Assembly: GCA_964372565.1 (NCBI GenBank)
Contig: CAYJRH010000002.1
Span: 1-43,360, forward strand
Source: an uncultured archaeon
GTDB taxonomy: Archaea > Iainarchaeota > Iainarchaeia > Iainarchaeales > Iainarchaeaceae
Reading direction: 5' to 3'
DNA length: 43,360 nucleotides
Positions 3,602-43,293 of the stretch are shown in pieces (positions within the stretch are counted from its first letter, which is position 1; each line of letters begins with the position of its first letter). The position numbers were made by a program, and so were the translations under genes. Under the pieces are notes generated by a model, which was given only the letters and a program-made list of their open reading frames with translations, was not told the origin of the DNA and did no database searches.

Positions 3602-4102
3602 ATGGATTCGCGTTCGCTGAAGGTTTTTTTCCTTTTCCTCGCTTCATATGCGCTGCTCTTTTTCCTCGGCAACTTTCTCAGCAAATCTTTGGGAGTAAAG
3701 GCGTGGGACTTCAGCAACGGCATTTGGAGGCTTGACTACATGCTCTGGTTCACCCCAATTGCCGGGTTCTTCTTCATTTACATGCTCATCCCATACCTCC
3801 GCTCGGAGTTCGGGTTCGGCAGGCATTTCATTTACTCCTTCCCTATTTTGTACTTCGTTTTTTCGTTCCTCGCTTACCAGCTTTCTGTCTGGTGGTATTA
3901 TGGGAACCAGCTGTTCCTCGCAACCAACGGCACATATGCTGGATGCGCGCTTTTCCTTTGCATCGACGTTTCGCCATTCGGCCTCAATTACTGGAACATG
4001 TTTGTGCAGTCGCAGTACCTTTACTTTGTCGTCGCCGGCGTGCTCGGCTGGGGCGCGAGGATGCTTATTGAATATTTCGAGCCTCCCGCAGAGGCGAAAT
4101 AA
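3602..4102 (+). CDS. hypothetical multi-pass membrane protein
   Basis: 166-aa ORF with 4-5 hydrophobic helices and aromatic-rich loops. No recognisable catalytic motif. Confidence 0.5.
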   Translation: MDSRSLKVFFLFLASYALLFFLGNFLSKSLGVKAWDFSNGIWRLDYMLWFTPIAGFFFIYMLIPYLRSEFGFGRHFIYSFPILYFVFSFLAYQLSVWWYYGNQLFLATNGTYAGCALFLCIDVSPFGLNYWNMFVQSQYLYFVVAGVLGWGARMLIEYFEPPAEAK

Positions 4103-4248
4103 CAGGAATATGCCCATTTGTTCAGTTCACTGCCGAGAGGCATCTTGCAAAGCAGTGCTTTGCGAGGCCTCCCAGAACTTTGTTCTGGGAAGGTGCCCGG
4201 AATCGCTTTTTTAATCCTTTCAGGGCCTTTTTCTTACTGGTTTTTCGG

Positions 4249-4986
4249 ATGGAATACCTGCACTCTGTAAGGGCTTACCTCGGCAATCTTCCCAGCGCGC
4301 TGGCGTTCGCCCTGTTGCTTGTTTTCGCCCTTCCTTTCGCCTGGATTTCCAATGCCATTGTTTCTTCGGGAACCGTGCTCATAGGCTACGGTTTCCTGAA
4401 GCAGCCGCTCCTCGAAATCATTCTGCTTCTCTGCCTCACCCTCGCCTTCCTCTTCTTTTACTCGGTAATAGTGTGCGTCATGGTCCTTGCCGTGCGCCGC
4501 GACCTGAGTTCAGTCAAAACCAATTACTATTTGAGGGAGAAGGTGCAGAAGTTCGGCCTCAAATACTTCAGGTTCCTCGCCATTTTCACCATAATAGCGG
4601 CGGTTGCAGCGACACTCCTTCTTGAGATTGGAGTCCCGCTCGCGCTCGTGAACCTTGCCCTGCTGCTGGTTTCGGCCTCGTTCATTTTCCTTCCGCAGGC
4701 AATCGTCGTTGACGAGGAGGGCCTTGCCGCATCCGTCCTCTCAAACTGGGACTTCATAATCAAGAATCCGGGAACGTTCCTCCTTGTTTCGGCTTTCGGG
4801 GCTGTAACTCTTCTGCTCCTGCAGCTCCTGGAATATTTGGCGGATTATTTCCTTTTTGCCGGCAGCTACCTCTCGCTCCTGATTGCGCTTGTTGTGCTCG
4901 TGCCTTTTTTCGAGGCATTGAAGACGCAGGTGTACATGGAAAGGTTCTCCCTCATCAGCAGCTACGAGCACTTCACAAACCGCTGA
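4249..4986 (+). CDS. hypothetical multi-pass membrane protein
   Basis: Hydrophobic helices run through the whole ORF. The ORF track starts at a TTG (4180). The first ATG is at 4249 (MEYLHSVRAY), with an A/T-rich box about 35 nt upstream. Confidence 0.5.
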   Translation: MEYLHSVRAYLGNLPSALAFALLLVFALPFAWISNAIVSSGTVLIGYGFLKQPLLEIILLLCLTLAFLFFYSVIVCVMVLAVRRDLSSVKTNYYLREKVQKFGLKYFRFLAIFTIIAAVAATLLLEIGVPLALVNLALLLVSASFIFLPQAIVVDEEGLAASVLSNWDFIIKNPGTFLLVSAFGAVTLLLLQLLEYLADYFLFAGSYLSLLIALVVLVPFFEALKTQVYMERFSLISSYEHFTNR

Positions 4987-35771: not shown

Positions 35772-35783
35772 AACCTATTTAAT
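35772..35783 (+). promoter_or_regulatory. BRE/TATA-like box aacctatttaat upstream of Lon fragment 1
   Basis: Ends 27 nt upstream of the ATG at 35811. An identical 12-mer lies upstream of Lon fragment 2. Confidence 0.45.
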
Positions 35784-35810: not shown

Positions 35811-36830
35811 ATGCCAGACCTGCTCAAGCTCGGTTCCACAAAGGAAGTGCCCGTCCCAAAACTGTTGTTGGACCAGATTGTGGGCCAGGACAAGAGCGTC
35901 GAGCTCATAAGGAAGGCGGCTGTTCAGCGCAGGAACGTGCTCCTTGTCGGCCTTCCGGGAACCGGCAAGTCGATGCTGGCAAAGGCAATGTCCGAAATAA
36001 TGCCGATACAGAAATTGCAGGACGTGATGATTTACCCGAATGAGGAAGACGCCAACAACCCGTTCGTCAAAACAGTGAAGGCGGGCGACGGGCAAAAAAT
36101 CCTGGAGCAGGCGCGTGTCGAGGTCAGGGCGCAGGACGACAACATGCGCCTCATAGGGTTCATACTCCCGATGGGCTGGTTCCTGCTCACTTATGTCCTG
36201 TGGACGCTCAAGCTCATGCCCGATGTTGTTTATGCCGCCACGCTGATACTCGGCGGGTTCCTCATGGTAGGGTTTGTCCTCGGCTCGCAGATGCGCGTGC
36301 GCACGGTGCTCGTTCCGCCCAAGCTCCTCATCAACAACGCGGGAAAGAAGATTGCCCCGTTCTTCGAGGCAACCGGCGCGCGCGCTGGGGCGCTGCTCGG
36401 GGACGTTCGTCACGACCCCTTGCAGTGCAATTACGGTTTTAACGAGCTTTTAGTCCAAAAGAAGGGTGAAAAAGACTTGGAATTTGAAAAAAAACCTTTT
36501 AACAAACTTTGGGATGAGATGAGACAGAAGCATCCTAAAGAAATAATCAAAACCGAGAAAGGATATGAGGCAATAATGCTCCCTGCCGAAGAGAAAGTTT
36601 ACACTTTAGGTTACAAAGACGGAAAGCCGGTTCTTTCAAAGATTTTATCTTTGAATAGGCGGCCGTTTGAAGGTGAGCTTGTGGACATACAATCAGGCGA
36701 TGCGAGAATTTCCGTCACACCAGAGCACAAGGTTGATGTGCCGGGCAACTATAAGCTGGCGTCAAATATTTCCACGGCAGATAACCTCATAAAACTCTTA
36801 ACGGAAAAAATCCAGGCAATAAACAGGTAA
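35811..36830 (+). CDS. lon: LonB protease fragment 1: N-terminal AAA+ part with two TM helices (205 aa) fused to intein-1 N-half
   Basis: LLLDQIVGQDKSVELIRKAA, Walker A GLPGTGKSMLAKAM, TM helices LIGFILPMGWFLLTYVLW and VVYAATLILGGFLMVGFVLG, ..GALLGDVRHDPLQ, then CNYGFNELLV.., and a stop at 36828. Confidence 0.9.
   Translation: MPDLLKLGSTKEVPVPKLLLDQIVGQDKSVELIRKAAVQRRNVLLVGLPGTGKSMLAKAMSEIMPIQKLQDVMIYPNEEDANNPFVKTVKAGDGQKILEQARVEVRAQDDNMRLIGFILPMGWFLLTYVLWTLKLMPDVVYAATLILGGFLMVGFVLGSQMRVRTVLVPPKLLINNAGKKIAPFFEATGARAGALLGDVRHDPLQCNYGFNELLVQKKGEKDLEFEKKPFNKLWDEMRQKHPKEIIKTEKGYEAIMLPAEEKVYTLGYKDGKPVLSKILSLNRRPFEGELVDIQSGDARISVTPEHKVDVPGNYKLASNISTADNLIKLLTEKIQAINR
36426..36827 (+). mobile_element. 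split intein 1, N-half (IntN1, 134 aa)
   Basis: Cys1 sits at the extein junction (DPLQ|C). Block B ISVTPEH. Colinear with the IntN of intein 2 (..TPEH..GN[YF]..). Composition turns abruptly AT-rich at 36426. Confidence 0.85.
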
Positions 36831-37042
36831 TCCGTTAGGTCAAATTCTTCTGTTGCCGCCTTCTGCTTTTCGTAAGAATTCTTTCATGTCAATCCCTCGC
36901 CACCTCCGCGGAATTTTTTCATTCCGACTCTGGGCTTTGCCTGCTTAAACCTTCTGCCCTCTTGGGAGGCCAAAGGATTTAATGCAGTCAAAGCCCTCCA
37001 AAGAGTCTCCATGAAAAAATTCCTTTCACGGAGGTGGCTCGA

Positions 37043-37183
37043 ATGGAGTTTTTGAAAGAATTTCAGATTCTTCCTCCAACAGCAGAGGAAATAGCCGCAG
37101 TTATCAAACTGCAGGAAATGGATTCGGAGTTTCTCACAGACAGGGAACTCTGGATTCTGCAAGAGTTCGGAGGTGATTGCTGA
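37043..37183 (+). CDS. 46-aa acidic ORF translationally coupled to the endonuclease gene (speculative)
   Basis: MEFLKEFQILPPTAEEIAAVIKLQEMDSEFLTDRELWILQEFGGDC. Its TGA overlaps the ATG at 37183 (tgATG). Not in the ORF track (<60 aa). Confidence 0.25.
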   Translation: MEFLKEFQILPPTAEEIAAVIKLQEMDSEFLTDRELWILQEFGGDC

Positions 37184-38292
37184 TGAGCGCACCGGCACCG
37201 AACTCCCTGAATAACAATATAAATGCCGCGAAGGCAGATTCGTCTGCGAGCAAGGGAAACAATCAATCTGCTTCTGAAACGGAAGCGTCTGTAATGCAGT
37301 CAATTATCACTGAACAGGACATAATCAATACTTATTCTAAGGAAGAGCAATTTTCCTGCAAGAAATATTTCGAGTATCAGAAACTCATTGTGGAGAATCC
37401 ATTGCTTGGTTACAAGAAAGCCGCAAAGCTTCTCGGAATAAAGCAGGGGTCGACAAGGTGGTGGCATACAAAAGGTGCAAAGCGTGCTATTCCTTTGCCT
37501 CTTAAAGTTATTGAGAAATTGAAGGGCGCAGGGTTGCTTCCGTTTTATGAAAACCATAAATCGTCTGAAACAATTTTCAACATGCTAGGCGTCTTGTTTG
37601 GAGATGGTGGCATTGATATACGTTACAACACGGTTGCATTCATTTCTTCTGACAGGAATGATATTGATTTGTGGCAGGCGGATTTGCTGAGGGTTTTTCC
37701 ATTTGCCCAAGGAAAAACACAAATTGTTGAAAGGGGTGAATATGGGCACTCCTACAATCTTCGCTCCTATGACCGCGCGGTAGTCAGGTTTTTTGCTGCT
37801 TTAGGTGTTCCTGTGGGAGACAAAGTAACCATACCCTACTCATTGCCAACACGGATTTTCAACTCTTCAGAAAAATCAAGAATTGCGTTTCTCGATGGTT
37901 ATCTTGCCGCTGAAGTTTCCGTTCCTTCATGGAGGTCGGACCCTCACGGAATAAATCGTTTCCAAAATTTTGCGATTGGCATTTCAAAAATTGAGTTCCT
38001 TGAGAAAGAGCACAGGGAATTTTTGAAAAGCGTTGAAGAACTCCTTGAATCTGTAGGAATTCAAACAACAGGAAACATCAACAAAAACTATTCTGCAGGT
38101 CATCACCGGAAGGATGGCGCATTCACCGCAAACTACCGCATATTTATCCGAACGCCTTTCCAAAGGGTTCTTTTCTTCAACGATAAATTCCAATTGCGCT
38201 ACGCGAGAGGCAAGAAAGAGAGATTCGGCAAAGTGATAGCCGAAGCGCTCGAAGAGAGGGCGGGGTGCGGAAGGCTTGGTCGGATAAAATAA
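37183..38292 (+). CDS. free-standing LAGLIDADG homing endonuclease with N-terminal HTH-like region
   Basis: LAGLIDADG motifs MLGVLFGDGGID and IAFLDGYLAAEVS. Colinear similarity to the endonuclease part of Lon intein 2 (IINTYS/IIQTYS; [28 protein letters not shown]; [19 protein letters not shown]). The conserved part may start at the ATG at 37294. Confidence 0.8.
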   Translation: MSAPAPNSLNNNINAAKADSSASKGNNQSASETEASVMQSIITEQDIINTYSKEEQFSCKKYFEYQKLIVENPLLGYKKAAKLLGIKQGSTRWWHTKGAKRAIPLPLKVIEKLKGAGLLPFYENHKSSETIFNMLGVLFGDGGIDIRYNTVAFISSDRNDIDLWQADLLRVFPFAQGKTQIVERGEYGHSYNLRSYDRAVVRFFAALGVPVGDKVTIPYSLPTRIFNSSEKSRIAFLDGYLAAEVSVPSWRSDPHGINRFQNFAIGISKIEFLEKEHREFLKSVEELLESVGIQTTGNINKNYSAGHHRKDGAFTANYRIFIRTPFQRVLFFNDKFQLRYARGKKERFGKVIAEALEERAGCGRLGRIK

Positions 38293-38339
38293 CCATTCGT
38301 ACCAGAAATGATTATAATCGCTTCAAGGAGAACACCTTT

Positions 38340-39023
38340 ATGGCGGGCTTGTTCACGCACGAGTGGATTGCCAAACTGGCCTTGGAGAAGCTTTCCAGAA
38401 GGGGCTTCATTTCGAGTTATGAGAACATTGACGATTATTTCTTCGGCGCAATCGCGCCGGACATAAGGTACATCGCCAATTCACAAAGGGATGTAACGCA
38501 CCGCCCGCTAGGCAAACATTCGATTTTTCAGGCTTTTCCTGTCAGCAGCACCTCAATTCCTTTCATGGCAGGCTATGAAACACATTTGATTGTTGACAGC
38601 ACCTGGGCGAACGACAACGGCGAGCTTGGCAGGAGCATTTATGCAAATTATGGCATTAACCAGAACGAACCAATCCAAAAATTCGGCCTTTACTTGGCTG
38701 TGGATGATTATTTTCAGGGCGAAGCGGATTGGCTTTTCCAATTTGAATGCGCAGGCAACATACTCAGGGCCAACGACACATCACTTTTGCTCAAACTTGG
38801 GTTCAGCCAAAATGATGCCCTAAAATTCAAGAGGCTTGCTGCACTCTATTTAAGGGAGCCTGGCTTAGACACCTTCAACGCATTCAATCTTTTCCCAAAC
38901 AATTTTGATGAGGCATTGCTTGGAAAAGTCGCCGACCAGATGCAGGCTTTGGCTTCCTTTTTGAAGGAATTCAAAAATGTCTCAGTAGAAAAGTGCCTTG
39001 AATCTTTGGAGAGATTACTATGA
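38340..39023 (+). CDS. zinc-dependent phospholipase C-like family protein (tentative)
   Basis: MAGLFTHEWIAKLA, FFGAIAPDIRY, THRP, GYETHLIVDSTW resemble the H/D metal-ligand spacing of PLC/P1-nuclease-like hypothetical proteins. ATG at 38340 preferred over 38265. Confidence 0.45.
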   Translation: MAGLFTHEWIAKLALEKLSRRGFISSYENIDDYFFGAIAPDIRYIANSQRDVTHRPLGKHSIFQAFPVSSTSIPFMAGYETHLIVDSTWANDNGELGRSIYANYGINQNEPIQKFGLYLAVDDYFQGEADWLFQFECAGNILRANDTSLLLKLGFSQNDALKFKRLAALYLREPGLDTFNAFNLFPNNFDEALLGKVADQMQALASFLKEFKNVSVEKCLESLERLL

Positions 39024-39148
39024 GGCCTGTTTTCAAAATAATTTTGGGGTTTGCCTCTGCAGTATTCATCGTTTTTATGATTTTTTATTTTCTTGTCTAT
39101 GTGGATATGCTGGCGTATTTCTATAATTTTGCGACAGCCATTGACTGA
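39020..39148 (+). CDS. 42-aa hydrophobic peptide, copy 1 (speculative small membrane protein)
   Basis: MRPVFKIILGFASAVFIVFMIFYFLVYVDMLAYFYNFATAID. ATGA overlap with the stop of the upstream gene. Not in the ORF track. Confidence 0.35.
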   Translation: MRPVFKIILGFASAVFIVFMIFYFLVYVDMLAYFYNFATAID

Positions 39149-39262
39149 CGGGGCAATTTTCATGCCTTGGCAGGGGGAGGCCATAAGTTGCGGCGGCCTG
39201 CGCCCAAGAAATTTTAAAAGAATTTCATTGGAAAAATGCGCCGAATCCCTGGAGTTGTATCT

Positions 39263-39391
39263 GTGAGGCTTATTTTCAAAATAATTTCGGGGGCAGTTAT
39301 CGCACTGTTTGCCTTATATCTGGCATTTCACATTGTGGGCTTTGCACTTTGGCTCGTGTATACCTATAACTTTTTGACGGCAGTTGATTGA
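39263..39391 (+). CDS. 42-aa hydrophobic peptide, copy 2 (GTG start; speculative)
   Basis: (M)RLIFKIISGAVIALFALYLAFHIVGFALWLVYTYNFLTAVD. Same length and shared MR..FKII.G / Y.YNF.TA.D ends as copy 1. Preceded by a degenerate copy of the 3' end of the PLC-like gene. Confidence 0.3.
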   Translation: MRLIFKIISGAVIALFALYLAFHIVGFALWLVYTYNFLTAVD

Positions 39392-39421
39392 ATCCAAGAC
39401 GCAAATTCCATTAACCAATGC

Positions 39422-39433
39422 AACCTATTTAAT
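39422..39433 (+). promoter_or_regulatory. BRE/TATA-like box aacctatttaat upstream of Lon fragment 2
   Basis: Ends 23 nt upstream of the ATG at 39457. Identical to 35772-35783. Confidence 0.45.
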
Positions 39434-39456
39434 AATTTTCCAACCATACGTCTAAC

Positions 39457-39579
39457 ATGGATTTCAGGGCAAAAGAGGAAAATGTAACCTCTGTCCAGAA
39501 GCGCCCTTTCAAGGGCCACGTTTACAACGTTACTACTGAAACTGGCAATCTCTTTGTAGAAAATATTTTGGTGCATAAT
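39457..39579 (+). mobile_element. split intein 1, C-half (IntC1, 41 aa)
   Basis: Blocks F/G: [23 protein letters not shown], then +1 Ser (tca at 39580). Begins at its own ATG. Confidence 0.85.
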
Positions 39580-41340
39580 TCAGGCGGCCTCGGGACCCCC
39601 CCGCATCTGCGTGTCGAGCCCGGCATGATTCACAAGGCCTCCGGCGGCGTGCTTTTCGTTGACGAGATTGCCACGCTTTCGCAGAAGAGCCAGCAGGAGC
39701 TCCTGACCGCGATGCAGGAGAAAAAGTACCCCATCACCGGCCAGAGCGAGATGAGCTCGGGGGCCATGACCCGAACCGAACCGATTCCGTGTTTTCCCGC
39801 GGAAGCAGTTTTGTCCGCCATGAACGGCAAAACCCCCATAGGGTCGCTTGTTGATTCAATTTTGTCGGAGAACCAAGGCAAAGTTAAGGTAATCGATGGC
39901 GTTGAAACTTTTGATTTGGAAAAAGAGCATCAAATTTTGGCATATTCCGAAGGGAAAATAGTCCCTTCAAAACTTCAAAGGGTTTACAGGAGAAAATATT
40001 CAGGGAAAGTCCTGAAAATAAAATTTGATGATGGAACCGAGCTGATAGCCACGCCGGAACATCCGATAAAGACATTAGGCAATTTTATCAAGGCGGATGA
40101 TTTAAGGGTTGGGGCCGTTGTGGAAGCTGAAGAAAAATCAGCAATATCGGAGGGCAAAAATATTATTCAAACCTACAGTAATGCCAATCAACTTATCGCC
40201 AAAAAGTTTGCTGCTTGGCTTTCATCAGAAAAAAGCCTTTCCCATAAAGAATTGGGGGTAGATAGCAAAACCGTATATTTATGGAAAAGGGGCGCAATGC
40301 CGCGACCATTAAAAGCAGCTCGATTTCTTAATAGTAAAAATCTGTTGCCATTGGCCGCTGACGATGCAAGGCTGCCGATAATAGCAAGAGTGGCCGGCGC
40401 ACTATTCGGGGACGGAGGTCTAGACGGGCGAAGATTTGCGAGAATCTATTTTGTTGCAGGTTCGGACGAACTTGCGGATATAAACGAATTCAAGGAAGAC
40501 CTATTGGCTATATTCGGGCGCGATATAGAGCCTGAAATTACTATTAGAAAAAGCGTATCCAAAACGGGTTCCGGTTTGGAATTATCCGTCAATAATTCAT
40601 TTATTGCAAGGTTTTTTTACGCGCTGGGCGTTCCAAAAGGCGATAAAGTTTCCCAACCGCTTAAAGTGCCTTCCTGGATAAATGGCTCAGACATATTGGG
40701 GCGCGAATTTTTCTCATCTCTTCTAACATGCGAGTTATATGGGGGCATCAGGAGCAGCCAGGACACCCCCAAATTTGTGATGGCTAAAATAAAAGACTTT
40801 GAAAAAGAGCACTTTGAATTTCTCAATTGTATAAGGGGCTTTTTATCAAAAAATGGCGTCGAAGTTGGGGAAGCAAGGGCGGTCAGGGAGTACACTAAAA
40901 ACAAGAATCTCGTGAAACCAAAACTAGCCGCCACTTATTCATTTAGCATAAAGCCCTCTTACAAAAACATAATCCGCCTGTCTAAAACTGTAAATTTTTA
41001 CTATGCGTATGGCAAGCGGACTGCAATGCTTGAAGCTGTGGGGCGCGGCGAAGCGTTTGTGGCGTATCAGGGCAATTTGAGAAATAAAAAGCAGCAAGCG
41101 GTTCTTTTAAGGCAAGATGGAAAAACTATTAGGCAAATAGCGGCTGAAACGCGGCTGCAAAAAAACACCGTTCTAAAGCTCGTGGCCCCTACTTATAAAA
41201 AATATTCAGAGGACGACAAAAGCAGAGTTTTTGAATTATTCAAACAGCAAATTTCGCCAAAGGCTGCAGCCAAAACGCTTCAAATCCCATATACAACCGT
41301 GCTTTACTGGAAAAATAATTATTATGGTGGCGGGCAATGA
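39457..41340 (+). CDS. lon: LonB fragment 2: intein-1 C-half (41 aa) + 70-aa Lon middle extein (Walker B) + intein-2 N-half with LAGLIDADG endonuclease and HTH regions
   Basis: ..[22 protein letters not shown]|[33 protein letters not shown]...[10 protein letters not shown]|[10 protein letters not shown]...ATPEH...[11 protein letters not shown]...LLTCELYGG...[16 protein letters not shown]...[12 protein letters not shown]. Stop at 41338. Confidence 0.9.
39790..41337 (+). mobile_element. split intein 2, N-half with fused LAGLIDADG endonuclease/HTH domains (IntN2, 516 aa)
   Basis: Cys1 (tgt at 39790) directly after TEPIP. Block B IATPEH. Two LAGLIDADG motifs. Terminated by the TGA at 41338-40. 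Confidence 0.85.
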
Positions 41341-41459
41341 TGTATCCGAAAACAACCAAAAAAATTATTGGAATAGAAGAAGAAAATTTTGGCGGCTACG
41401 TATATAACGTTAAAACGGAAGCCGGAACTTATCTAGCCAACTCCATAGTTGTCCATAAT
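41337..41459 (+). mobile_element. split intein 2, C-half (IntC2, 41 aa)
   Basis: Blocks F/G: [23 protein letters not shown], then +1 Cys (tgc at 41460). The ATG overlaps the IntN2 stop (caATGAtg). Confidence 0.85.
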
Positions 41460-42557
41460 TGCGATTTCGTCCTTGCCGCCGCGGGGAATTACGAGGACCT
41501 TGAGAAGGTCCACCCCGCGCTTCGTTCGAGGATAAGGGGTTACGGCTACGAGATTTACATGAATGTCGACATGGATGACACCGAGGAGAACCGCAACAAG
41601 ATAGTGCAGTTCGTCGCGCAGGAAGTCACGAACGACGGCAAAATCCCGCACTTCTCGATGGACGCGATACAGGAGATTATTTTCGAGGCGCGGAGGCGCG
41701 CGGGAAGGAAAAACAAGCTGACGCTGAAGCTCCGCGATTTGGGCGGGCTTGTCCGCGCCGCCGGCGACCTGTCAAAGGAAAAGAACCACCGGCTTGTTTC
41801 GAGGCAGGATGTGCTCGAGGCAAAGATGACCGCGCGCACGCTCGAGCAGCAGATGGTCGGGAAAATCATCGAGGAGAAGAAGGATTACGAGGTTTACCGC
41901 TTCGAGGGCTCGGCAATCGGCCGCGTGAACGGCCTTGCTGTTATGGCCGACGGCGACGCGGGCCTGATAATGCCCATTGAGGCCGAGATTGCGCCTGCGC
42001 AGTCCGCGAGCGAGGGGAAAGTCATTGCGACAGGCAAGCTCGGGGAGATTGCGAAGGAAGCCGTGCAGAATGTTTCCGCAATAATAAAGCGCCTTTCGGG
42101 AAAAGACCTCACAAAGCAGGATTTGCACATCCAGTTCCTGCAGTCCTACAGCGGTGTCGAGGGAGATTCCGCTTCGGTGAGCGTTGCGACAGCGGTCGTT
42201 TCTGCGCTTGAGGGTATTCCGGTGAAGCAGAACCTCGCAATGACCGGCTCGCTGAGCGTGCGCGGCGAGGTGCTCCCTGTCGGAGGGGTTACCGCAAAGG
42301 TTTCCGCCGCGATAAACGCGGGCTTCACGGAAGTGATAATCCCGAGGGCGAACTCCGAGGATGTGGTGATTTCGGCAGGCCAGCTCAACAAAATCAGGCT
42401 CATCCCTGTTTCAAACCTTTCGGACGTCCTTGAAAACGCGTTTGTGAAGGGCGAGAAGACCGACAAGCTCCTCACAAGCCTGAGGAAGCTCATCAAGGGC
42501 ACGCTGCTGAAGGAATCCGCCAAGCCCAAGGGCGGCGCGGCGGTCAACATTCTGTGA
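41337..42557 (+). CDS. lon: LonB fragment 3: intein-2 C-half (41 aa) + C-terminal AAA+ remainder and Lon protease domain (365 aa)
   Basis: [41 protein letters not shown]|[23 protein letters not shown]... Protease Ser in [19 protein letters not shown] and Lys in [13 protein letters not shown]. Confidence 0.9.
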
Positions 42558-42572
42558 AACCCGCTATTGCAT

Positions 42573-42935
42573 TTATTTCACGAACACGGCATTTTCCATG
42601 CGCTCGAATTCCTTATCCCCGGTAAGGAATTTGATGCCAAGCCTTTTTGCGATAGTGTAGCCGATTGCATCAGGCATTGATAGCGCTTTTTTTTCAAGCC
42701 TTAAATTAGAGGCATTTGAAATATCCTCGGTTGTCACTTCTGTGAGGAATCTCCAGTATTTTTTTGTGTATTCATCAGCCTGTTTTTTGCCCTCGCGCTT
42801 CATCGCATAGCTCAGTTCAGCTAGGTTAAATATGGTTGTGACTGCACTTGCTTCCTGAAAACCCGCATAGCTTACCGTGCCGTTAATGATTCCGAAAAAA
42901 GCGTAGGTGTCAAAGAAAATTTTCCCGTTAGTCAT
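42573..42935 (-). CDS. vapC: PIN-domain toxin (VapC-like)
   Basis: KIFFDTYAFFGII (first acidic residue), MPDAIGYTIAKRLGIKFLTGDKEF (C-terminal PIN motif). 8-nt overlap with the upstream antitoxin gene. Confidence 0.85.
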   Translation of the reverse strand: MTNGKIFFDTYAFFGIINGTVSYAGFQEASAVTTIFNLAELSYAMKREGKKQADEYTKKYWRFLTEVTTEDISNASNLRLEKKALSMPDAIGYTIAKRLGIKFLTGDKEFERMENAVFVK

Positions 42936-43155
42936 TCCAAAGTTCCTTGTCGACTTCCTTCAATATGGCCTCAATCGGCCTCGAGAATTTTATGGTGCCC
43001 CACGTTTCCTTCAGCGGGTTTTTCCCGGATTTTTTCCTTATGAGAAGCTCCACTTCCTCGCCAGTCTTCAGTTTTTCCTTCAGTACGGCGTCCCGCGGAA
43101 TCACAACACCTTTCGACTTCCCCCACTTCCTTATTGTTGCCGTGACTTCTATCAT
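42928..43155 (-). CDS. vapB: AbrB/SpoVT-type antitoxin (VapB-like)
   Basis: MIEVTATIRKWGKSKGVVIPRDAVLKEKLKTGEEVELLI. The internal ATG at 43155 is preferred over 43209. Confidence 0.8.
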   Translation of the reverse strand: MIEVTATIRKWGKSKGVVIPRDAVLKEKLKTGEEVELLIRKKSGKNPLKETWGTIKFSRPIEAILKEVDKELWND

Positions 43156-43293
43156 AAAACCGCAATAATTATATCGATATAACTGGTTAAAAGGCTTCCG
43201 CCTTTCCAAGCCCGCTCACCAGTCGCTTGGAATCTTCCGCCGGTCCGTCATCCTTGGTTTTGCCGGCAGGCCTGCAAGTATGCGGGTATCGGC

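Follow-up and report, generated by a model that had tools for sequence, protein, structure and literature searches.

How an intein that carries its own homing endonuclease comes to be broken into separate genes is the question raised by the lonB locus of an uncultured Iainarchaeaceae archaeon. In the 43,360-nt stretch of DNA analyzed here (contig CAYJRH010000002.1, assembly GCA_964372565.1; hereafter the window; all coordinates refer to the forward strand), the archaeal LonB protease is spread over three reading frames (35811-42557, plus strand), and the N- and C-terminal halves of its first intein, IntN1 (ending at 36830) and IntC1 (starting at 39457), are separated by a 2.6-kb interval occupied by a free-standing LAGLIDADG endonuclease gene (Table 1). 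A sequence-only reading of the window had placed this gene between the two halves of Lon intein 1, regarded its product as a paralog of the endonuclease in a second LonB intein, and likened the arrangement to published fractured genes. Our analysis indicates that the interval is probably the interior of a naturally fractured three-piece LonB intein at the insertion site DPLQ|SGG, with predicted trans-splicing, predicted homing and predicted gating of the endonuclease. Comparison with its relatives shows an ancestral intein, composed of Hint-N, LAGLIDADG endonuclease and Hint-C, that was severed at both borders between Hint and endonuclease. Separate genes encode LonN-IntN1 and IntC1-LonM, the endonuclease stands alone behind a control module consisting of a hairpin and a small open reading frame (sORF), and the space between the endonuclease and IntC1 has been taken up by unrelated cargo genes.

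Removal of both inteins in silico yields a 640-aa LonB that aligns without gaps to the 640-aa uninterrupted LonB of a sister lineage (P0121; 86% amino acid and 79% nucleotide identity), and comparison with uninterrupted LonB was used to set the ends of the exteins. The N-extein has Pfam AAA-type matches and is colinear with P0121. The first intein residue is a Cys, located directly after DPLQ in intein 1 and after TEPIP in intein 2; block B reads TPEH in IntN1 and IntN2 and aligns with the TPEH/TPDH of contiguous Lon inteins; and the intein C-termini, ILVHN|S in intein 1 and IVVHN|C in intein 2, are His-Asn followed by Ser or Cys at position +1. IntN1 can be aligned to the N-terminal portion of the Hint domain in contiguous Lon inteins, and it matches IntN2 with an E-value of 1e-9. 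The halves of intein 1, joined by a linker, matched the Pfam profile PF14890 (Intein_splicing) over positions 10-155 of 155 with 27.1 bits (E 4e-6), below the gathering score of 35.8 bits; intein 2 scored 38.9 bits, over the same cut-off, and the two-piece relative P0244 scored 46.4 bits. With Cys1, TPEH and VHN|S in place at the expected coordinates, the comparisons support the view that the sequences flanking the gap are genuine Hint halves, in line with the sequence-only reading.

Intein 2, inserted at TEPIP|CDF 70 codons downstream of the intein 1 site, is itself split, with IntN2 and its endonuclease in ORF B and IntC2 in ORF C. IntN2 begins with CFPAEAV, carries the TPEH motif, and gives Pfam matches to Intein_splicing (E 9.4e-10) and HTH_23. 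The ATG of ORF C (IntC2 and Lon C-extein, 41337-42557) lies at 41337 and overlaps the TGA of ORF B at 41338-41340 (ATGA). Intein 2 was present in three species of the set (the window, L035 and L036), and because it is split in all of them, the LonB of each would be assembled from three polypeptides. To our knowledge, no natural protein assembled from three polypeptides by trans-splicing has been described.

The product of the gene in the gap aligns with residues 222-521 of ORF B at 28% identity over 322 aa (BLASTP, E 2e-25), and all of the motif pairs by which the two endonucleases had been likened fall inside this significant alignment. The proposed homology with the intein 2 endonuclease is thus borne out, with one refinement: the nearest relatives of the free gene are not in intein 2 but appear to be the endonuclease domains of contiguous Lon inteins at DPLQ|SGG, for example that of Thermococcus nautili. 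Its endonuclease body, with the N-terminal helix-turn-helix (DIINTYS...GYKxxAKxLG...TRWW) included, matches the endonucleases of these contiguous inteins colinearly, at 32-38% identity. Across 17 homologues (31-70% identity), D141 of motif 1 (MLGVLFGDGG) is invariant, and E244 of motif 2 (IAFLDGYLAAE) is present in at least 90%. The match to Pfam LAGLIDADG_3 (PF14528) reached 19.3 bits, under the cut-off of 22.5, and a sequence-profile search of the Protein Data Bank (PDB) with the endonuclease alignment retrieved no LAGLIDADG protein, its sole match being a penicillin-binding protein that was judged spurious. As the sequence-profile searches fell short, a fold search was needed. An AlphaFold2 model built from the 17 homologues (predicted local distance difference test score, pLDDT, 85.5; predicted TM-score, pTM, 0.82) was compared with the PDB by Foldseek, and the best matches, every one of them a LAGLIDADG enzyme, were I-Tsp061I (2dch, E 2.4e-8), I-DmoI, E-DreI, PI-SceI and the TliVMA intein endonuclease; target-normalised TM-scores were 0.58-0.72 for stand-alone enzymes and 0.32-0.38 for intein chains. 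The modeled fold is accordingly that of a LAGLIDADG protein of the pseudo-dimeric alpha-beta-beta-alpha-beta-beta-alpha type. Since the family is divergent, its assignment rests on this predicted fold together with the conserved motifs, and both agree with the earlier designation of the gene as a free-standing LAGLIDADG enzyme. Matches of about 1040 aa to the endonuclease profile, considered as Lon with a contiguous intein 2, were rejected; they are Hef-like helicases whose intein has the same endonuclease family. In P0270 and P0279, this family (N-terminal DIxxTYS helix-turn-helix region) occurs in contiguous inteins of Hef/DEAD-like helicases, at the site DEC|..|CHR.

Four states of the DPLQ|SGG site can be envisaged (empty, contiguous, two-piece and three-piece), and all four were found. 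The spliced LonB is matched best by uninterrupted LonB proteins of 630-670 aa from Diapherotrites, and the empty state is represented by P0121, L086 and L087. In the empty locus L086, lonB is flanked by the same divergently oriented Apyc1-like upstream gene as in the window; L087 also has the Apyc1-like gene upstream, with one extra gene between, and shares downstream genes for DUF373, Band_7, SpoIIM and RNA_pol_L with the contig of the window. The contiguous state was recovered by hidden Markov model search of 1.84 billion representative proteins, as LonB proteins of 1070-1159 aa with an intein of the same family at the same site (P0248, P0250, P0256, P0259 and T. nautili P0263). In the two-piece state, found in about 35 species, LonN-IntN-endonuclease forms one ORF and IntC-Lon another, and about 20 of these species share an identical ATGA overlap at the junction and a 39-aa IntC; intein 2 of the window has the same two-piece architecture. 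The three-piece state comprises all Iainarchaeota-like loci and a nested subset of the Woesearchaeota-like clade. In a multiple alignment with contiguous inteins, break 1 falls just ahead of the conserved IITEQDIINTYS at the start of the endonuclease region, and break 2 falls between the final endonuclease helix and block F; the three pieces are colinear with these inteins, in agreement with the two boundary cuts proposed earlier. A neighbor-joining tree places the contiguous forms basal to both clades (A and B), and the intein 2 endonucleases outside all site-1 endonucleases.

Other inteins were seen in the same protein. A third LonB site lies in the Walker A motif (GTGK|S; P0242, L013:4216-6201, L044, L066:4466-6613), in some species together with a split site-1 intein. 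P0145, P0230 (archaeon GW2011_AR10) and other Diapherotrites harbor a different contiguous intein (CILPDQ...LTHN, standard LAGLIDADG) at DPLQ|SGG, from which it follows that at least two intein lineages compete for the site. The Ser+1 codon of site 1 (39580-39582) is TCA in the occupied allele and AGC/AGT in the two empty alleles examined (L086 and L087), a multi-step difference right at the junction that may reflect co-conversion or target immunity.

The window locus, with 100% identical proteins in the same gene order, is also present in GCA_947085725.1, ERR4904390/1/2 and ERR3478686 (one NCBI metagenome-assembled genome and four Logan assemblies, from two projects). The agreement of these five independent assemblies excludes a chimeric join, and the gap is not an assembly artefact. 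A scan of one genome per species with endonuclease-derived peptide patterns returned 80 loci from Iainarchaeota/Diapherotrites, Woesearchaeota, Micrarchaeota, Nanoarchaeota (mostly DPANN) and one closed Heimdallarchaeum chromosome, and the order LonN, endonuclease, IntC-LonM holds in every one of the 80 with both sides present; the scan is biased against some contiguous forms. One fractured archaeal lon contig (L029, JAFCCG010000016.1) sits in an assembly labeled as a Chloroflexi bacterium, probably a binning error.

The idea that lon is a decaying pseudogene, that its breaks are sequencing or assembly errors, or that ribosomal frameshifting or bypassing restores one polypeptide is extremely improbable and already contradicted by the comparative data, for although the intein 2 break is a single ATGA overlap that alone could pass for a frameshift error, the structure is identical in the five assemblies, the same overlap recurs in about 20 species and in the closed Heimdallarchaeum chromosome, the exteins are strongly conserved (LonM 67-100% identical across loci; omega roughly 0.01-0.07 in the close pairs tested), and gaps of 0.05-3.8 kb with other genes cannot be bypassed.

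The free endonuclease gene is preceded by a hairpin with a minimum free energy of -76.5 kcal/mol (z = -8.1), in which the outermost stem pairs CCACCTCC with GGAGGTGG. An alignment of 13 sequences supports 39 pairs (94.4% paired), 15 of them changed on both sides; none of 500 shuffles reached the observed pairing values, and slid controls remained at or below 58%. Equivalent hairpins are present in most clade-A loci and missing, with the entire module, from the clade-B three-piece loci. The hairpin has no Rfam match, and neither the locus nor the window as a whole gave one; the window contains no tRNAs. Near the loop, the arms contain AAAGGnTTTAAT, a sequence similar to an archaeal B recognition element/TATA box (BRE/TATA), and a TATA-like TTTAAT lies in the loop-proximal right arm. 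The hairpin overlies the start of the sORF, which has a GGAGGTG Shine-Dalgarno sequence upstream and whose TGA overlaps the endonuclease ATG (TGATG), the stop/start coupling described in the sequence-only reading. The sORF is conserved in a 14-locus alignment, always overlapping the endonuclease start, and is represented by 185 protein clusters at 90% identity in the protein collection, with an omega of 0.2-0.37; it has no Pfam match. An origin of the sORF as a leftover of the IntN-endonuclease linker was rejected, as contiguous inteins lack an equivalent segment.

Two copies of the promoter-like 12-mer AACCTATTTAAT precede lonN and the IntC1 ORF, and with up to one mismatch allowed they are its only occurrences in the 43-kb window (0.08 expected). 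In most clade-A loci, the IntC ORF is preceded by this same box at a distance of about 30 nt, and intein-less lonB genes have similar boxes on their upstream side. Because the IntC1 ORF lacks a Shine-Dalgarno sequence, its mRNA is inferred to be leaderless, and the identical boxes suggest that the lon fragments may be transcribed leaderless and co-regulated. As a candidate promoter or regulator site common to both split halves, AACCTATTTAAT would keep them co-expressed.

Together these elements suggest how the locus could operate. Polypeptides A, B and C would associate through IntN1/IntC1 and IntN2/IntC2, and two protein trans-splicing reactions would yield the 640-aa LonB. The identical promoter boxes would co-regulate fragments A and B, and fragment C would be kept in step with them by its translational coupling to ORF B. 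Read-through RNA from lonN would fold the hairpin and hide the ribosome-binding site of the sORF, and transcription from the TATA-like box inside the hairpin, starting about 25 nt downstream, would give an mRNA without the left arm and with the ribosome-binding site exposed. The free endonuclease would still cut intein-less lonB at the DPLQ|SGG codons (candidate target, in the empty site of L086, CTCGGCGACGTGCGCCACGACCCCCTGCAG|AGCGGCGGCCTCGGCACCCCGCCGCATTTG), and double-strand-break repair would then copy the whole cassette, cargo included.

Table 1. Features of the fractured lonB locus in the window
Feature	Position	Strand	Description
Promoter-like 12-mer AACCTATTTAAT, copy 1	35772..35783	+	ends 28 nt before lonN ATG
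ORF A	35811-36830	+	LonB N-extein, then IntN1 (CNYGF...TPEH...AINR, stop)
LonB N-extein	35811..36425	+	205 codons; Walker A and membrane anchor; ends DVRHDPLQ
IntN1, N-terminal half of split intein 1	36426..36830	+	134 codons and stop; Cys1, block B TPEH
Conserved long hairpin/palindrome	36893..37047	+	about 150 nt; left arm CCACCTCC pairs with sORF Shine-Dalgarno GGAGGTGG
sORF, 46-aa acidic protein	37043..37183	+	P[ST]xEEI...RELW[IV]LEN...; stop overlaps endonuclease start
Free-standing LAGLIDADG homing endonuclease (predicted)	37183..38292	+	369 aa; leader of about 39 aa, N-terminal helix-turn-helix region, two LAGLIDADG motifs
Zn-dependent phospholipase-C-like gene	38340..39023	+	227 aa; Pfam PF00882 E 3.7e-6, 27.4 bits (cut-off 26.8)
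Small hydrophobic (membrane) peptide ORF	39020..39148	+	42 aa; ATGA-coupled to phospholipase-C-like gene
Paralogous small hydrophobic peptide ORF	39236..39391	+	51 aa; inside partial tandem duplication
Promoter-like 12-mer AACCTATTTAAT, copy 2	39422..39433	+	ends 24 nt before IntC1 ATG
ORF B	39457-41340	+	IntC1, LonB middle extein, IntN2 and endonuclease 2
IntC1, C-terminal half of split intein 1	39457..39579	+	41 codons; ILVHN precedes Ser+1
LonB middle extein (LonM)	39580..39789	+	70 codons; SGGLGTPPH...TEPIP
IntN2-LAGLIDADG endonuclease 2 fusion with two C-terminal helix-turn-helix domains	39790..41340	+	stop TGA 41338-41340
IntC2, C-terminal half of split intein 2	41337..41459	+	41 codons; IVVHN precedes Cys+1
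LonB C-extein	41460..42557	+	AAA lid and Lon_C protease domain; Pfam Lon_C E 3.3e-33, LonB_AAA-LID

Whether the free endonuclease still homes is the point at which the strongest alternative arises, namely that homing has been lost and that the enzyme either has been domesticated for a host function or survives, together with the acidic product of the sORF, as a nuclease/inhibitor pair resembling an addiction system. Selection on the endonuclease is as strong as on LonB: omega is roughly 0.04-0.19 against close relatives, dN is near that of the Lon exteins, and 77 of the 80 copies in the genome scan are free of internal stops, which would be unusual for a purely selfish endonuclease after fixation; the sORF, for its part, is conserved, encodes an acidic product and is translationally coupled in every case. 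Against this stand the intein-less lonB alleles, common in the closest relatives, which mean that targets exist, and histories of the endonuclease and IntC that are partly decoupled from those of the exteins; moreover, the retrieval favored loci that keep the endonuclease. Endonuclease and extein divergence correlate at r = 0.82 over all loci, but strict co-inheritance was rejected, since the correlation is driven by the deep split into two clades and drops to 0.2-0.5 within each clade, where the two extein halves retain r values of 0.7-0.8; the decoupling is consistent with movement between lineages. Cassettes can also be mosaic: IntN1 of L007 (6271-6600) is 44% identical to that of the window (dN 0.50) and stands beside a LonN, endonuclease and IntC that are 85%, 69% and 88% identical, a pattern that implies recombination inside the cassette. 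The mosaic cassettes, the decoupling and the abundant empty alleles together favor continuing homing of the whole cassette, and we regard loss of homing as unlikely.

A second alternative concerns the origin of the free gene, which might, by the invasion route proposed for fractured genes (Dassa, London, Stoddard, Schueler-Furman & Pietrokovski, NAR 2009, PMC2677866), have entered a mini-intein or replaced the original endonuclease domain as a ready-made sORF-LAGLIDADG unit. Those authors predicted that LAGLIDADG enzymes could fracture genes too (PMC2677866), and the hairpin, the sORF and the first ~25 codons of the endonuclease (M..SPA.N....YKA.E; window 36893-37183) also precede very different free-standing LAGLIDADG genes at ordinary intergenic sites, at least four of them unrelated (L088:4770-6450, L089:4770-6063, L090:4770-6138, L263:5001-6037, and L260, minus strand, ~3900-4270); three of these copies (L088-L090) lie on one 985-kb Iainarchaeota contig. 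However, the other module-linked genes, 20-25% identical to each other, show marginal similarity to the Lon endonuclease (about 22%, E 2e-4 or worse), the body of the latter is colinear with the same-site contiguous intein endonucleases as described above, and the clade-B three-piece loci do without the module altogether. Gain of the ~0.4-kb 5' module alone is the more economical reading, and invasion by a complete gene seems to us still less likely than a loss of homing. Because the module also precedes unrelated LAGLIDADG genes, we infer that break 1 of clade A was made or stabilised by its acquisition, with an endonuclease body native to the Lon intein.

A bolder version of the same idea, which we put forward tentatively and consider doubtful although less so than either alternative above, is that hairpin, acidic sORF and ~25-aa leader constitute a portable cassette among Iainarchaeota LAGLIDADG genes that actively fractures genes, and that the sORF product recognises the shared leader and acts as regulator or inhibitor. 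Insertion of the cassette at a Hint/endonuclease boundary would provide stop and start codons as well as a promoter and a ribosome-binding site, converting an embedded endonuclease domain to a free-standing gene, and a split intein would arise as a by-product. Collection scans with the pattern GAAAAAATTN{7,10}GGAGGTGG matched 51 viral and at least 120 metagenome stretches; after filtering for the left arm or the RELW peptide, five metagenome loci and no viral loci with the module were left. Most pattern matches are thus due to chance, and the element cannot be called viral.

Several points weigh against the interpretation of the locus as a fractured, trans-splicing and homing intein. Two Pfam scores, those of intein 1 and of the endonuclease, lie below their cut-offs, and the PDB profile search was negative. 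The endonuclease tree is a single neighbor-joining tree without support values, and the peptide patterns of the genome scan are blind to split lon loci that lack the endonuclease. As dS is saturated, the omega values are rough, and rate heterogeneity could partly explain the within-clade decoupling. Among departures from hairpin pairing, C-A is as frequent as G-U, so the element could be kept as a DNA palindrome rather than as an RNA structure, and promoters were assigned by sequence resemblance. Trans-splicing, DNA cleavage, the starts of the transcripts and the part played by the sORF are predictions from sequence.

The interior of the gene, once broken, behaves as ordinary intergenic DNA. 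In the window, the interval contains a phospholipase-C-like gene, with orthologues at the same position in seven loci, and two small hydrophobic peptide ORFs, associated with a partial tandem duplication (38970-39049 and 39213-39292, 73% identity). The distance from endonuclease to IntC ranges across loci from a short overlap to about 3.8 kb. In L014, L026 and L033, the phospholipase-C-like gene is followed by a membrane protein family of about 200 aa. Other cargo between endonuclease and IntC includes a DDE transposase, a C-5 DNA methylase, an AAA_14/DUF4143 ATPase, a radical-SAM enzyme with a TrmB regulator, and a set resembling diversity-generating retroelements (DGR-like; reverse transcriptase, Lcl_C and bAvd); cargo loci of other species are L265:2130-4629, L019:1907-4968, L063:8152-9132, L052:1418-3353 and L034:5400-6710, with the cargo of L052 placed between IntN and the endonuclease gene instead. 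Downstream, lon is adjoined by a pair encoding a PIN toxin and an AbrB/MazE-type antitoxin (42573-43209), which is not present at the syntenic position of L087, where DUF373 comes after lon.

Natural split inteins without an endonuclease are known from cyanobacterial DnaE and the Nanoarchaeum equitans DNA polymerase, and reviews portray natural split inteins as having no endonuclease domain. The Lon inteins resemble them in being broken where endonucleases are canonically inserted, in having a short IntC (39-41 aa in Lon) and in requiring trans-splicing for assembly of the host protein. They differ in that the Lon halves lie at one locus rather than far apart, that the endonuclease is kept, either free or fused to IntN, rather than lost, and that one Lon protein needs two split inteins. 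The contiguous LonB intein of Thermococcales (T. nautili WP_042693108.1) shares the site DP[FL]Q|SGG, the domain order and the endonuclease family with its N-terminal helix-turn-helix, but is a single cis-splicing polypeptide that ends in VKN rather than VHN and lacks the hairpin, sORF module and cargo. Control by a hairpin and an internal promoter is known from I-TevI of phage T4. In the Aeh1 nrdA endonuclease gene, likewise, a hairpin in read-through RNA hides the ribosome-binding site, and an internal promoter gives a translatable transcript (via PMC2677866). The Lon hairpin is predicted to mask a ribosome-binding site and to contain a promoter-like element in the same manner, but its element is an archaeal TATA-like box, not a phage late promoter, and it fronts a small ORF coupled to the endonuclease.

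The fractured genes of Dassa et al. harbor GIY-YIG or Vsr-like endonucleases in DNA-metabolism hosts, mainly in phage-like marine metagenome DNA, with a hairpin and late promoter upstream of 15 of 16 endonuclease genes; LAGLIDADG enzymes were predicted, not observed (PMC2677866). Those loci and lon have in common a host gene divided, at a single locus, into collinear same-strand parts that each bear half of a split intein, a free-standing endonuclease between the parts, an upstream hairpin that has a promoter-like element and can sequester the ribosome-binding site, and overlapping neighbouring coding regions. The likeness noted in the sequence-only reading holds for the gene arrangement and extends to the hairpin, but not to endonuclease type or phage setting, which are traits of the published examples and not part of the definition. 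The lon locus has a LAGLIDADG endonuclease native to the intein and a protease as host, lies on an archaeal chromosome in synteny with intein-less genomes and contains cargo, and its insertion site also occurs in contiguous and two-piece form; the likely origin of the Lon form is domain release, and the 5' control module alone looks imported. In the literature searched, which covers the field in part, no description was found of a split or fractured Lon intein, or of a natural split intein retaining LAGLIDADG, and an earlier survey of archaeal inteins included just two DPANN genomes. What appears new relative to known fractured genes is a cellular, archaeal example with the intein's own LAGLIDADG; the hairpin over the sORF ribosome-binding site, the shared module and the twin promoter-like 12-mers are new in the present analysis.

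The origin of split from contiguous inteins is a long-standing question, for which the published "missing link" had foreign endonuclease types in phage-like DNA. At one site in one cellular gene of related archaea, every stage is seen (empty, contiguous, IntN-fused endonuclease and freed endonuclease), and one gene family thus appears to display the steps by which split inteins arise. Because all stages occur at one site and the break points fall on Hint/endonuclease domain borders, the pathway is directly testable. Three more points emerge from the locus: strong selection can persist on a homing endonuclease that has left its intein, other genes (a DNA methylase, a DGR-like set, an insertion sequence transposase) can use the inside of a fractured gene as a landing pad, and an essential-type protease can, as predicted here, rely on two trans-splicing reactions in succession. 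Dozens of natural and diverged split-intein pairs with an IntC of 39-41 aa are available in this family, which makes it relevant to protein ligation tools, and the two pairs in one LonB are presumably orthogonal. Should the portable cassette be real, the Lon locus of DPANN archaea would supply many orthogonal split-intein pairs of natural origin, and LonB would be the first known case of a protein whose assembly takes two natural split inteins.

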